Source: a virus. From it: a stretch of 26,395 bases of DNA. The DNA lies in UHGV virus genome UHGV-0085321. One strand, given 5' to 3'. Shown piece by piece: positions 21,601-26,395 of this stretch (position 1 is its first letter; each line of letters begins with the position of its first letter). Position numbers: made by a program.

Positions 21601-24600
21601 GGTAGCTCGATGGTAACAACCTGTCGAATCCGAACTGCTTACCACTCCTGCATGCGATGTCTTCTGCCAGCATCGTGGCAAACTCGCTTGCCGTACCCCT
21701 GGTAGTTTTACGCCATTCCCTGAACTGTGTTCTGAATGCCGAAGCTGCGTTTTTCTTCCCGGCTTTCCGCATGCCTGCACACCAGAATATTTCCTCGAAT
21801 GCCTTGTCGGTTTCTTCGTGACGGTCAGGAGTTTTTTCACACTCCGTTCGGACATGTTCGAACATAATGTTTTTAGGTTCATTGACTGGTTCAAAAGAGT
21901 GATAGGTTCTGGGGGCAGCTCCTGCCCCACCCCCTAGGGCAGCTCCTGCCCCACCCCGGGCAGCTCCTGCCCCACCTGATTCTGGTTGGATTTGTTGTGC
22001 ATTATCCAGCGTCAGATAAAAAACGTTTGACTGGTTAAGCTCTCCTTTTCTTCTGAATTCCCTTTTCAAAAGCCCCATCTCTTCCAGTGCCCTAATGTGA
22101 CTTTTTACTGTCGATCTGCTCACCTCACACTGGTCAGCGACATGTTGATATGAAGGCCAGCATTCGCCATTATCATTGGCGTTATCGGCAAGTTTAATCA
22201 GAACCAGTTTTCTCAGTGGGTTGCCAACCTTTATATTCATGGCCTTAGCCATAAGATTCATGCTCATTTTGACTTCTCCGAAGTTTTGTACCTGTTAAGT
22301 ATTTCTCTCAGTGGCACAGCTATTGCTGGATTAACCCCCTGATAAAACTGGTCACGTAGCACATCTTTTCGGTGATTAACGCGTTTATTTTCCTGCGTTT
22401 TTCGCATATAATTACCTCGCTGGATGTTGTTAAAATTCCATCTGGATTTGTTCAGAACGCTCGGTCTTGCACACCGGGCGTTTTTTATTGGTGAGTCCAT
22501 CAAGCGCATACTTAAAAGCCCTGCTAATCGGACTGATGTCTGATGCCATTCCGAAAGCACACAGGACCGAAGCAATAAACCGCCAGTCCGTTCTGCTTAT
22601 CTTCGATTCATGACAGCCAATCATCTTTGCCAGACCGCGCTGGGTAATAGTTGACAGGTTGATGAGTAAATCTGTTTCTGCGCGATCAATTTCTCGCTGT
22701 GTTGGCTTGCTGTAACTTGCTTGTGTCATTTGTTAATTTTCCAATAGTGAATAGTTAGTTGAAAGGTATGCGTGGAAACGCATATGGCCTTGGTTGGTCA
22801 GATATTCTGGGATTCGCTTTTCAGCGACGTAGGACGAATGTCCGTTGTTACAAAGAGCGGGGTTACTTATGCTGCCAAAAGGTTCTTTTTGCTTATTTCA
22901 AGCATTTCGCTTGCTTGATATTTGCCACCAGAAATCTCTTCGATTTTTGATGCATATTTCGTTTTCCCAAAAAACTCAGTCTTAGGGAGGAAGCCGTTTT
23001 TGAGCCACTTATAGACAGCCCTTTCGCTAACTCCACAAGCCTTCGCAACTTCAGGGATGCCGACACCTTTAATCGGCTCATCAAGATTTTGCATGTGGAT
23101 ATCCTTTTTCGTACTTTCAGTACGCATTATGATTGAACTGAAAGTTTTTGCAAGTGCTTTAGTATCGTACTCATGGTTCAGAATGAAAAAGTGCGCAAAG
23201 AATTCGCCCAGCGGCTAGCGCAAGCCTGTAAAGAAGCTGGTCTTGATGAACATGGTAGGGGAATGGCCATAGCCCGCGCCCTTTCTCTTTCGTCCAAAGG
23301 CGTTAGCAAATGGTTTAATGCTGAGTCTTTACCACGTCAGGAAAAAATGAATGCGCTTGCGAAATTTCTAAACGTTGATGTTGTGTGGCTTCAGCACGGC
23401 ACTTCGTTAAATGGAGCGAATGATGAAGATACTCTTTCATTTGTTGGCAAATTAAAAAAAGGGTTAGTGCGCGTGGTTGGTGAGGCAATTCTTGGTGTTG
23501 ATGGTGCCATCGAGATGACCGAAGAGCGCGATGGGTGGCTCAAGATTTATAGCGATGATCCAGATGCCTTTGGTCTTCGTGTGAAAGGAGACAGCATGTG
23601 GCCCAGAATAAAATCAGGAGAATATGTACTCATTGAGCCTAACACCAAAGTATTCCCGGGTGATGAGGTGTTTGTCAGAACCGTTGAAGGACACAACATG
23701 ATCAAAGTTCTTGGCTATGACAGAGACGGAGAATACCAGTTTACAAGCATCAACCAGGACCATAGGCCAATAACGTTGCCTTATCATCAAGTAGCAAAGG
23801 TGGAGTATGTAGCTGGTATTCTGAAGCAATCTCGCCATCTGGATGACATCGAGGCAAGGGAGTGGCTGAAAAGTTCGTGACTTCATCGTCACATAGCTGA
23901 TAGCCAGTGGCCTGAAGAGACGTTTGGCTGATCGGCAAGGTGTTCTGGTCGGCGCATAGCTGATAACAATTGAGCAAGAATCTTCATCGAATTAGGGGAA
24001 TTTTCACTCCCCTCAGAACATAACATAGTAAATGGATTGAATTATGAAGAATGGTTTTTATGCGACTTACCGCAGCAAAAATAAAGGGAAAGATAAGCGC
24101 TCAATAAACCTGTCTGTTTTCCTTAATTCTCTGCTGGCTGATAATCATCACCTGCAGGTTGGCTCCAATTATTTGTATATTCATAAAATCGATGGAAAAA
24201 CTTTTCTCTTTACCAAAACAAATGACAAGAGTCTGGTTCAGAAGATAAATCGCTCTAAAGCTTCAGTTGAAGATATTAAGAACAGCCTCGCAGATGACGA
24301 ATCATTGGGATTCCCATCTTTTTTGTTTGTTGAAGGCGACACCATTGGTTTTGCCAGAACTGTTTTCGGGCCGACCACATCCGATCTGACAGATTTTTTA
24401 ATCGGGAAAGGAATGTCATTAAGCAGTGGAGAGCGCGTTCAGATAGAGCCACTGATGAGGGGAACCACCAAAGACGATGTTATGCATATGCATTTCATCG
24501 GCCGAACAACGGTGAAGGTAGAAGCCAAGCTACCTGTATTTGGCGATATATTAAAGGTCTTAGGGGCAACAGATATTGAAGGGGAGCTTTTTGACTCATT

Positions 24601-26395
24601 GGATATAGTCATTAAGCCAAAATTTAAAAGGGATATAAAAAAGGTTGCCAAGGATATTATTTTTAACCCGTCACCTCAATTTTCAGACATTAGCCTGCGG
24701 GCAAAAGATGAGGCCGGAGATATTTTAACAGAACATTATCTATCAGAAAAAGGCCATCTCTCAGCGCCTCTGAACAAGGTCACCAATGCTGAGATAGCTG
24801 AAGAGATGGCATATTGCTACGCAAGAATGAAAAGTGATATACTGGAATGTTTTAAAAGGCAGGTGGGCAAAGTTAAGGATTAATTATCAGGAGTAATTAT
24901 GCGGAACAGAATCATGCCTGGTGTTTACATAGTAATAATTCCTTACGTTATCGTAAGCATTTGCTATCTCCTTTTCCGCCACTACATTCCTGGTGTTTCT
25001 TTTTCAGCTCATAGAGATGGTCTTGGGGCGACATTGTCATCATATGCAGGAACCATGATTGCAATCCTGATTGCTGCCTTGACGTTTCTAATCGGAAGCA
25101 GAACGCGCCGACTGGCCAAGATTAGAGAGTATGGGTATATGACATCGGTAGTTATTGTCTATGCCCTTAGTTTTGTTGAGCTTGGAGCTTTGTTTTTCTG
25201 CGGGTTATTGCTTCTTTCCAGCATAAGCGGCTACATGATACCCACTATCGCCATCGGCATTGCCTCTGCATCGTTCATTCATATATGCATCCTTGTTTTC
25301 CAACTATATAATTTGACCAGAGAACAAGAATAACCCGGCCTCAGCGCCGGGTTTTCTTTGCCTCACAGACTTAACAACCGCACATGTGGTAAACCGCAAA
25401 CCAACACGCCAGCAAAATCATTCTTTCTCCACAACTGACCAGTCTTCAACCTTTACAAAAATAAATTTCCTTATATATCAAAATCATATTTCGTAGAGTT
25501 AATAAATCACAAAATTTCGTACCAATAGTTCTTGATAATTTCGAACTATTAGTTCATTATTATCGCCATCAGCAGGAAGCTGGAAGCCAAACGGAACAGA
25601 CTGGCAGGCTCTTTAAACAACGTCGAACACTCGACTACGTGGCTGAAAAGCCAGATCACCCAACCACATAAGCTGTGGGATGCAATGCCGAAGCAACCGT
25701 CTCAGGAGGGGCTTCGAGATTGCATCGCCAAAGTTTATTCGGGAGGAATCTATGTCCAGAAAAACAGAATTTAAAGGAACCGCAGCTTCTCGCCGTAGAG
25801 CTCGTCGTGCAAATCTGCAAAGTCAGGAGGCGATCAGCTCCGACAAGCTACACAGGCCAACCCCTTCACGAGTGGTCTTGCAATGCAAGCGCAAACCAGC
25901 AATGAGAGCAGAAGTGATAACTCTGACAACGTTGACCAGAAAATATGAAGGTTCAACTTGTCTTCCAAACGTAGCTCTTTACGCGGCAGGCTACCGGAAA
26001 TCAAAACAACTGACGGCGAGGTAATTATGGGTCAGGAAGAAAAATATGAGCTTAAAAAGCTCATTGGAGAAGACGCCATAGAAGAAATTGCAGCATTAAC
26101 AACAGCTATAAAGAATATTAGGTATGCGCTAAATACGCTTATCTCCTCATGCGACAAAAATAGCAGGGAATTTTTGATACTTGGCGCAGCTCTAGGAATA
26201 GTTGATGCGGCAACGCTTCACCTAATTACTCATGACGATATTCTTATTGAGCCGTATGAAACATTACTGCTTGTCAGGCAAAAAATGGCTGATGCCGCAG
26301 CAAATGGAGACCTTCAACTTTACATCGACTTAAGGAAAGTATTAAGGCGAATGGTCAGAACTGAAGGAGATATCCCCCTGACAAAGTAAGGGGGT

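Follow-up and report, generated by a model that had tools for sequence, protein, structure and literature searches.

Organization of the immunity region

The window analyzed here, the whole 26,395-nucleotide (nt) stretch of the UHGV virus genome UHGV-0085321, contains a region with the layout of a lambdoid genetic switch: cro and cI diverge around a multisite oR, a second operator region lies at pL upstream of N, and cII lies downstream of cro. The cI gene (23173 to 23880, plus strand) encodes a protein of 235 amino acids (aa) with an N-terminal HTH_3 domain and a C-terminal Peptidase_S24 domain (LexA-like autocleavage) in Pfam. The cro gene (22867 to 23094, minus strand) encodes a 75-aa protein that matches helix-turn-helix families in Pfam, and Phage_CII and N_peptide were also matched in Pfam.

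Between cI and oL lies a cargo known from lambda, rexA (24044 to 24883) and rexB (24899 to 25333), both on the plus strand and matched by the Pfam RexA and RexB families. Positions 23901 to 25366 of the window are 99.9% identical to lambda. Both genes are presumably cotranscribed from pRM. The terminator scan placed an intrinsic terminator 3' of rexB (25332 to 25353, plus strand), at the end of the immunity transcript; this hairpin also follows the cargo genes of 933W, where it is annotated as tM.

A palindrome family confined to the early control regions

A window-wide scan found palindromes of the family G(A/T)AC(T/C)-N3-(A/G)GT(A/T)C confined to both early control regions of the immunity region. 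An earlier note on this DNA had described four such sites by the formula G(T/A)ACT-N3-AGT(T/A)C (GWACTNNNAGTWC). This formula has two exact matches in the window, at 23111 to 23123 (GTACTTTCAGTAC) and 25543 to 25555 (GAACTATTAGTTC), against 0.07 expected from sequence shuffles, which supplied the chance expectation for all pattern counts. The remaining two sites of the note, at 23135 (GAACTGAAAGTTT) and 25519 (GTACCAATAGTTC), fit the formula with one mismatch each. When one mismatch is allowed, the window holds seven matches against 1.53 expected. Five of these fall within ~135 bp of control DNA (23111, 23135, and 23167 at oR; 25519 and 25543 at oL), and the other two, at 9002 and 17583, lie within long open reading frames and correspond in number to chance expectation. 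The published form of the site, GWACYNNNRGTWC, gives four exact matches in the window against 0.11 expected, every one an oR or oL operator.

The presence and positions of the four palindromes were thus read correctly in the earlier note, and their frequency is far above chance. Their number was not: there are five, the overlooked one (23167 to 23179, GTACTCATGGTTC) spanning the cI ATG as OR3. The functional site of the 933W repressor is a 15-mer, that is, the 13-bp pattern plus one base on each side (PMC3317979).

The oR operators and their promoters

OR1 (23110 to 23124, CGTACTTTCAGTACG) matches the pattern exactly, is a perfect palindrome at positions 1 to 6, and spans the pR start site. 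It is identical to its 933W counterpart, annotated as oR1 in NC_000924 (locus 3249 to 3263). OR2 (23134 to 23148, TGAACTGAAAGTTTT), also identical to 933W and annotated as oR2, is a one-mismatch match with A rather than G at position 2 of one half-site; it lies in the pR spacer, 24 bp from OR1 center to center. In 933W, OR1 is the strongest natural repressor site and OR2 the sole natural site with a half-site that has no G-C at position 2 (PMC3317979). OR3 (23166 to 23180, CGTACTCATGGTTCA) matches the published form, is annotated as oR3 or OR3 in three records, and lies 32 bp from OR2, overlapping the cI ATG (23173) and the predicted pRM start. In alignments with NC_000924 and GQ499365, every base of OR1, OR2, and OR3 is that of 933W, and four nonoperator bases of oR differ. 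The window sites coincide with the oR1, oR2, and oR3 features of NC_000924 and with the OR1 to OR3 and OL1 to OL2 features of GQ499365. The AP004402 annotation gives 17-bp "putative operators" and a cI promoter within the cI open reading frame; it conflicts with the footprinted 15-mers and was set aside.

The promoter scan called pR on the minus strand (23126 to 23153), with a -35 element TTGCAA (23153 to 23148), a 16-bp spacer, and a -10 element CATAAT (23131 to 23126). In the 933W record this span is labeled "pR; putative major rightward promoter." The arrangement proposed in the earlier note, with OR2 in the spacer and OR1 over the start site, is correct. This promoter drives cro, cII, and the replication genes. 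The scan did not call pRM. Read from the sequence, a putative pRM (23138 to 23165, plus strand) has a weak -35 element CTGAAA (23138 to 23143), a 16-bp spacer, and a -10 element TAGTAT (23160 to 23165). Its counterparts are the feature "pM; putative maintenance promoter" in NC_000924 and the pRM with an annotated start in HM208303.

The predicted pRM start at 23172 to 23173 would yield a cI mRNA that is leaderless or has a one-base leader. A leaderless cI is consistent with the missing Shine-Dalgarno sequence, none being present before the cI ATG, and with the phi24B record (HM208303), in which the pRM start is annotated one base before the cI ATG. We infer the exact pRM start, as we do the effect of the one-base OL1 difference described below. 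Relative to the annotated pRM, the OR2 15-mer extends from about -39 to -25, overlapping the -35 element. In lambda, OR2 lies near -42, and compared with that position, OR2 over the pRM -35 element is in an unusual place for an activator.

The oL operators, pL, and a probable nutL

OL2 (25518 to 25532, CGTACCAATAGTTCT) matches the published form and is identical to 933W OL2, annotated as such in GQ499365. OL1 (25542 to 25556, CGAACTATTAGTTCA), an exact match to the pattern, lies 24 bp from OL2. Between and beside them the promoter scan called pL (25532 to 25560, plus strand), with a -35 element TTGATA (25532 to 25537), a 17-bp spacer, and a -10 element CATTAT (25555 to 25560). OL1 sits in the spacer and touches the -10 element, and OL2 adjoins the -35 element; the earlier note had correctly put one site in the spacer and one just upstream. 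The position of pL relative to the two operators is kept in relatives.

OL1 differs from 933W OL1 (CGAACTATTGGTTCA) at a single base, A instead of G at position 6', nucleotide 25551 of the window. In half-site terms this is a change from C-G to T-A, T-A being the consensus base. Because C-G has been reported as the more favorable base at position 6 (PMC3317979), the affinity of OL1 may be somewhat lower here than in 933W. From the published data on position 6, the predicted drop is at most ~2.5-fold. Among 109 related loci, A at position 6' of OL1 occurs in 12, and the OL2/OL1 pair of the window occurs in 3, the window counted.

Downstream of pL, a boxA-like sequence, GCTCTTTAAACAA (25608 to 25620), and a boxB-like hairpin, TGGCTGAAAAGCCA (25640 to 25653), read from the sequence, make 25608 to 25653 (plus strand) a probable nutL. 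It lies upstream of N (25752 to 26024), whose product belongs to the N peptide family in Pfam. This segment is unlike the nutL of 933W and is identical in two Escherichia coli prophages.

The switch corresponds to that of 933W

CI is identical to 933W CI at 235 of 235 residues, and Cro is identical to 933W Cro at 75 of 75. The DNA-contact residues S41, K42, K46, and E51 are all present in the window CI. With CI identical and OR1 to OR3 identical to experimentally bound 933W sites, the earlier proposal that the palindromes are repressor operators is well supported, and so is a specificity different from that of lambda, given 15-bp rather than 17-bp sites. The further claim that they define an immunity type of their own does not stand: the type is already known as imm933W, and the half-site also occurs in HK022.

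Purified 933W repressor binds five natural sites with nanomolar affinity or better in electrophoretic mobility shift assays (EMSA) and DNase I footprinting (PMC3317979; PMC5977221). In vitro selection, EMSA, and footprinting define symmetric 15-bp sites, three at OR and two at OL; in the natural sites positions 2 to 5 are conserved, C occupies position 6 in 3 of 10 half-sites, and the center is A/T (PMC3317979). The five window sites show the same symmetry over 15 bp, the same features at positions 2 to 5, position 6, and the center, and the same odd OR2. The consensus site is bound with a KD of 4.8 nM, and the S41A and K46A mutant repressors lose specificity (PMC3317979). Relative KDs for OR1, OR2, and OR3 are 1, 13.6, and 26.4; cooperativity between adjacent sites is absent, there is no OL3, long-range looping has no role at pRM, and a lysogen contains 34 repressor molecules (PMC5977221). 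Specific CI binding, repression of pR and pL, and homoimmunity have been shown for 933W and phi24B (PMC3317979, PMC5977221, PMC3064807). Our search of the accessible papers for binding of 933W Cro to the operators found no usable experiment. Affinities, contact residues, and noncooperativity are carried over from this 933W literature and are predictions for the DNA at hand.

The region is almost certainly a 933W-type immunity module, carried by a lambdoid prophage. In such a module, CI dimers would bind the five twofold-symmetric 15-bp sites through the N-terminal helix-turn-helix, the half-site being N-G-(A/T)-A-C-(T/C)-N around a central A/T pair, with S41, K42, and K46 reading positions 2 to 5 and E51 reading position 6. 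CI on OR1 (pR start) and OR2 (pR spacer) would shut off pR and with it cro, cII, the replication genes, and the late genes; on OR3 (pRM start and cI ATG) it would shut off its own synthesis; and on OL1 (pL spacer and -10) and OL2 (beside the -35) it would shut off pL and N. Published 933W work found that OR2 and OR3 are filled at similar repressor concentrations, so that the repressor level would be low and the prophage easily induced. Induction would proceed through RecA-stimulated self-cleavage of the S24 domain. Cro made from pR would then presumably bind at these operators and lower transcription from pRM and the early promoters; we infer its binding there by analogy.

Comparison with other lambdoid switches

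The window shares with 933W its CI and Cro proteins, the sequences of OR1, OR2, OR3, and OL2, the spacings of 24 and 32 bp at oR and 24 bp at oL, the lack of OL3, the position of OR3 over the cI ATG, and the positions of pR, the putative pRM, and pL. The same immunity is present in phi24B, Min27, Stx2 converting phage I, and many Stx1 and Stx2 prophages. Outside the switch, the two genomes differ. Between cI and oL, 933W has genes for a DUF3024 protein, a RuvC-like resolvase, and stk, whereas the window has lambda rexA and rexB. The window also has another type of N and nutL, replication genes of a primase/helicase type rather than the lambda O/P type of 933W, and lambda-like virion genes, unlike those of 933W. 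We saw no stx gene in the window.

HK022 and HK75 use the same half-site, G-(A/T)-A-C-(T/C), in 15-bp sites. Their oR1 and oR2 are 24 bp apart, as in the window, and their oR2 and oR3 are 33 bp apart, compared with 32 bp here. They also have oR3 over the cI ATG, a cI that starts MVQ, and equivalents of K42, K46, and E51. However, their CI is only 35% identical to that of the window over the aligned region (~50% in the N-terminal domain), with P in place of S41 and a different C-terminal domain, and their Cro is 45% identical. An oL3 is annotated in HK022-type phages, which also have an additional OFR site; the window lacks OL3. These phages use Nun and put sites where the window has N and nut. 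An HK022 immunity type was therefore rejected for the window, given CI and Cro 35% and 45% identical to those of HK75, no OL3, and N rather than Nun.

With lambda, the window shares the gene order cII-cro-oR-cI-rexA-rexB-oL-N, divergent pR and pRM, a repressor with a helix-turn-helix and a LexA-like S24 domain, and a cI mRNA that in the window is predicted to be leaderless or nearly so. The distance from oR to oL is ~2.4 kb in both because they carry the same rexAB cargo. The operators themselves are different: lambda sites are 17 bp, those of the window 15 bp and unrelated in sequence; lambda has three oL sites and the window two; and OR1 lies downstream of the pR -10 element here but over it in lambda. 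In 933W, unlike lambda, adjacent dimers bind without cooperativity and looping has no role (PMC5977221). Without cooperativity and looping, the module would be a mechanistically atypical lambdoid switch.

Conservation and natural variation among related loci

Among related loci that contain the OR1-OR2 cassette and enough downstream DNA, the OL pair was present with its exact 24-bp spacing in all 109. It lies at 58 different distances (964 to 3,121 bp) and occurs in 23 sequence variants, which differ almost wholly at positions 1, 3, and 6 and at the center. OR3 was found in 132 of 132 related loci and varies at positions 3, 3', and 7, plus 4' in one locus. On the protein side, 18 distinct N-terminal domains, ranging down to 62% identity, all have S41, K46, and E51; at residue 42, 17 of them have K and 1 has R. 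Across more than 100 related loci, the OL pair is always coinherited with this cI N-terminal domain.

E. coli 23CRST013 is a natural swap control for this pairing. It has the same rexAB and nutL-N flanks with a different cI N-terminal half, cro, and oR, and in it a segment of ~200 bp at oL is swapped for unrelated TTATCA-type repeats. These comparisons show that the cI N-terminal half, cro, oR, and oL move as one unit. In Salmonella phage SI8 (81% DNA identity), the site cores are kept and the spacers changed; the sole core changes are one A/T position 3 base each in OR3 and OL1.

The cro-cI segment is matched over at least 80% of its length by 106 phage records, and 140 match at 95 to 99% identity. 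More than 119 IMG/VR contigs contain the OR1-OR2 cassette. In exact-pattern scans of species-representative genomes, the cassette was present in six and the OL2-OL1 segment in none. Cassettes of the imm933W type are spread across Enterobacterales, in Escherichia, Salmonella, Cedecea, Pectobacterium, Xenorhabdus, and Dryocola. No record in the phage collection, and none of 5,426 complete E. coli genomes, matched the whole cro-to-N segment at 80% coverage or more.

Alternative explanations

We weighed four other accounts of these sites. That the palindromes are functionless chance matches in AT-rich intergenic DNA is vanishingly improbable: the one-mismatch matches at 9002 and 17583 do arise at about the expected rate, but the four exact matches to the published form, against 0.11 expected, all fall within oR and oL, the sites are identical to 933W sites for which binding has been demonstrated, and position and 24-bp spacing are kept in more than 100 loci with variable flanks. 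An immunity specificity unlike that of any described lambdoid phage is likewise extremely unlikely. The specificity does differ from those of lambda, 434, and P22, and no record in the phage collection and none of 5,426 complete E. coli genomes held the full mosaic of lambda-like virion, this immunity, and rexAB at 80% or greater coverage; yet CI and Cro are the 933W proteins at 100% identity, the operators are identical save for one OL1 base, many phage records match the cro-cI segment, more than 119 IMG/VR contigs contain the OR1-OR2 cassette, and the HK022-type half-site is the same.

OR1 might instead act mainly in RNA, either by folding the 5' end of the cro transcript into a hairpin or by resembling a terminator, and the terminator scan does list 23110 to 23124, with a stem of 6 bp and a tail that contains T. 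The stem is short, however, with a 3-nt loop, and the downstream tail, CATTATGATT, has no T-run. The other four sites are poorer palindromes for which weak folding is expected, and repressor binding to the OR1 sequence is documented (PMC3317979). We consider this role highly improbable. Slightly less remote, though still very unlikely, is a weak third oL operator upstream of OL2 that would complete a lambda-like set of three plus three sites with looping between OR3 and OL3. The DNA upstream of OL2 has a recurring TTCGTA motif (TCGTA, 25491 to 25495, within TTCGTAGAGTTAATAAA), and about a quarter of related loci do carry a good third site, such as GTACTAAAAGAAC or AAACCATAAGTAC, at 32 to 34 bp upstream of OL2. 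At the expected offset in the window, however, the best candidate has at least four mismatches in 13, on which ground a functional OL3 was rejected, and 933W, with the same sequence at that spot, is reported to lack OL3 and to have no role for looping at its pRM (PMC5977221).

Novelty and possible consequences

The operator set of this 933W-type module is already known, its consensus, affinities, and contact residues having been published between 2000 and 2012 and the sites annotated in GenBank. Since the sites are the characterized 933W operators, the finding is correct and ordinary, and it illustrates that a genuine operator family can be recovered by reading sequence alone. For annotation, it places the prophage in the 933W immunity group and positions pR, pRM, pL, and five operators; homoimmunity with many Shiga-toxin phages is therefore expected.

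Features specific to the window are minor: the lambda-like virion, the rexA/rexB cargo, a different N and nutL, and the one-base OL1 variant. Among ~130 other loci with the OR1-OR2 cassette, none combines a 933W-type switch with lambda rexA/rexB cargo downstream of cI. RexA and RexB reportedly bias the lambda switch. It is conceivable, if rather unlikely, that rexAB and a weaker OL1 shift the set-point of this switch and that the two-site oL is a derived loss. If the noncooperative, low-repressor switch were shifted in this way, the lysogen could be measurably different from that of 933W in stability or inducibility. A derived loss in the 933W lineage, the window included, is suggested because relatives keep the third oL site at an oR-like spacing of 24 plus 32 or 33 bp.

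Operator sites of the immunity region

A lambdoid immunity region, oriented inversely to the usual lambda layout, occupies the right end of the window. The minus strand carries cro (23094-22867; HTH families in Pfam) and cII (22729-22430; Phage_CII) together with the replication genes, while the plus strand carries cI (23173-23880; HTH_3 and Peptidase_S24), rexA (24044-24883; RexA), rexB (24899-25333; RexB), and N (25752-26024; N_peptide). The earlier note had proposed that four palindromes of the form GWACTNNNAGTWC at oR and oL serve as operators for CI and Cro. Across the window, this formula has two exact matches, at 23111 and 25543 (0.07 expected), and seven matches when one mismatch is allowed (1.53 expected). 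Five of the seven (23111, 23135, 23167, 25519, and 25543) lie either between cro and cI or immediately upstream of N; those at 9002 and 17583 fall within long ORFs. With T or C permitted at the fifth position, as in the published operator description, there are four exact matches versus 0.11 expected, all of them in control regions. These exact matches, along with the clustering of the one-mismatch matches, establish that the palindrome family is real. Its observation at oR and oL is thus confirmed and its interpretation as a set of repressor operators is supported, but the family has five members rather than four: OR3, which lies over the cI ATG, had been overlooked, and two of the four sites listed depart from the formula by one mismatch.

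This system has already been characterized in detail, and the window is a member of the phage 933W immunity group. Its cro-cI segment is 97.5 to 98.2% identical to that of many Stx phages (97.9% for 933W), and both CI (235/235 residues) and Cro (75/75 residues) are identical to their 933W counterparts. Annotations transferred from NC_000924 (window position = 933W locus + 19861) place oR1 at 23110-23124, oR2 at 23134-23148, oR3 at 23166-23180, pR at 23126-23153 on the minus strand, and pM at 23138-23165. The same OR1 to OR3 are annotated in HM208303 and in GQ499365, the latter of which has OL1 and OL2 features as well. In an alignment of oR from the window, 933W, and phage 22deltatox, all bases of the three 15-mers are the same, and the few differences lie between sites or beside the cro start. 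OL2 in the window, CGTACCAATAGTTCT, is the same as in 933W; OL1 is CGAACTATTAGTTCA, the tenth base of which is G in 933W.

The 933W repressor site spans 15 bp with rotational symmetry about the central pair (Bullwinkle et al. 2012, PMC3317979). Positions 2 to 5 are strongly conserved among the five natural sites, with invariant A-T and C-G at positions 4 and 5; position 6 is T-A in 7 of 10 half-sites and C-G in the other 3, and the center is A/T (PMC3317979). Our rereading of the 933W versions of the five sites reproduced all of these counts, which identifies the sites in the window as the published ones. The consensus is bound with a KD of 4.8 nM and OR1 about tenfold tighter; contacts are made through S41, K42, K46, and E51, and the S41A and K46A mutants lose specificity (PMC3317979). 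Within intact OR, the relative KDs of OR1 to OR3 are 1, 13.6, and 26.4, OR1-OR2 cooperativity and OL3 are absent, partial OR3 occupancy limits pRM, and a 933W lysogen contains about 34 repressor molecules (Chakraborty et al. 2018, PMC5977221). The phi24B CI likewise band-shifts its left operator, which has two sites (Fogg et al. 2010, PMC3064807).

Promoters and adjacent control elements

A promoter scan located pR at 23153-23126 on the minus strand (TTGCAA, 16-bp spacer, CATAAT) and pL at 25532-25560 on the plus strand (TTGATA, 17-bp spacer, CATTAT). The pR spacer is occupied by OR2, and the predicted pR start lies under OR1. At pL, OL1 occupies the spacer and reaches the -10 element, and OL2 directly adjoins the -35 element. 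The placement of sites at both promoters in the earlier note agrees with these coordinates. A putative pRM -10 element (TAGTAT, 23160-23165) lies seven bases ahead of the cI ATG, no Shine-Dalgarno sequence precedes this ATG in the window, and the pRM start in the phi24B record (HM208303) is annotated one base ahead of it, which makes a leaderless cI mRNA, or one with a one-base leader, plausible. Within 23134-23165, the OR2 15-mer has an odd placement: it sits at approximately -39 to -25 of the predicted pRM start and overlaps the weak -35 element of the annotated pRM, whereas lambda OR2 lies near -42 of pRM.

Downstream of pL, a boxA-like GCTCTTTAAACAA and a boxB-like hairpin TGGCTGAAAAGCCA at 25608-25653 form a probable nutL. 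It is unlike the nutL of 933W, and the N protein paired with it is also of another type, with a C terminus that resembles P22 gene 24.

Features particular to the window

Between the 933W-type cI and the 933W-type oL lies lambda rexAB with its terminator (23901-25366; 99.9% identity to lambda). None of the approximately 130 other loci compared that have this immunity cassette contains rex, and no record in the phage collection or among complete E. coli genomes covered at least 80% of the cro-to-N segment. The mosaic around this 933W-type immunity is new but unremarkable. Over the first 25 kb of the window, about 62% of the sequence matches phage lambda at about 97.6% identity, lambda-like virion genes included. 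The replication module (19500-22267) encodes a 258-amino-acid helix-turn-helix protein and a 626-amino-acid primase/helicase, as in Salmonella phage SI8, in place of the lambda-like O/P of 933W, and constitutes further mosaicism around the immunity region. Because C-G is the preferred base pair at position 6 (PMC3317979), repressor would be expected to bind the variant OL1 slightly less tightly.

In about one-quarter of relatives, a good third site lies 32 to 34 bp upstream of OL2, such as GTACTAAAAGGAC or AAACCATAAGTAC (examples are SI8, locus L005, 5872-5884, and loci L009, L013, L014, L036, and L112, among others), a spacing that mirrors the 32 bp between OR2 and OR3. No good third site is present upstream of OL2 in the window or in 933W, and comparison with these relatives suggests that their oL reached its two-site state by a derived loss. 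Upstream of OL2, TTCGTAGAGTTAATAAA (25490-25506) repeats a TTCGTA motif also found before OL2. It is conserved in 933W, has at least four mismatches to a full site, and may be a remnant of OL3.

Operators are inherited with the DNA-binding half of cI

At least 119 IMG/VR contigs contain the exact OR1-OR2 segment (cassette), as do species-representative genomes from Cedecea, Pectobacterium, Xenorhabdus (two species), and Dryocola. Of 132 cassette loci, all 109 with enough downstream DNA contain a site pair spaced exactly 24 bp apart, at 58 different distances from OR1 (964 to 3,121 bp) and in 23 sequence variants; the 23 loci lacking the pair all end less than 2.4 kb downstream. Apart from two single-base exceptions, the pair varies only at positions 1, 3 (A/T), and 6 (T/C) and in the central three bases. 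A comparison of 18 distinct CI N-terminal sequences, with identities as low as 62%, showed S41, K46, and E51 in every one; 17 of them have K at residue 42, and the remaining one has R. Phage SI8 has kept the site cores while its spacers have diverged. E. coli 23CRST013 shares with the window the C-terminal half of cI, rexAB, the terminator, nutL, and N (99.6% identity), but its cro, its oR, and the N-terminal half of its cI are different, and unrelated TTATCA-type repeats take the place of the window's oL segment. E. coli MS 21-1, conversely, has cro, cI, oR, and oL as in the window, OL1 variant included, with a DUF2335 gene replacing rexAB. Taken together, these comparisons indicate that the operators and the DNA-binding half of cI move together, as an immunity module would be expected to do. 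In 23CRST013 (NZ_AP045773.1, 2110-2224 and approximately 4480-4640), the cI N-terminal half, cro, oR, and the oL segment are of another immunity type, with repeated TTATCA/TGATAA motifs; this prophage is a clear case of a swap with its recombination point within cI.

One further locus, a 452-bp contig labeled "Xanthomonas pisi" (NZ_JPLE01000237.1), matches the 933W oR exactly over the approximately 90 bp compared and is most likely contamination.

Relationship to HK022-type phages

Phage HK75, whose operators are annotated by similarity to HK022, has oR1 and oR3 of sequence TGAACTTATGGTTCA, oR2 of GGAACTGATAGTACA, oL2 of TGTACTACTGGTACT, and oL1 of TGAACTTTAGGTACA. It has the half-site and spacing (24/33 bp in HK75) in common with the window, and in both, oR3 lies over the cI start and cI begins MVQ. 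The HK75 CI is about 50% identical to that of the window in the N-terminal domain and keeps equivalents of K42, K46, and E51. Since HK022-type phages have the same half-site, spacing, and oR3 placement, the operator family is older than 933W in the literature. A review describes the 933W CI as having an N-terminal domain close to that of HK022 and a C-terminal domain identical to that of H-19B (PMC3202840). In line with this join, the C-terminal (S24) half of cI in the window (23453-23880) is approximately 98 to 99% identical to Stx1 phages, BP-4795, and mEp506, in all of which the N-terminal half of CI differs.
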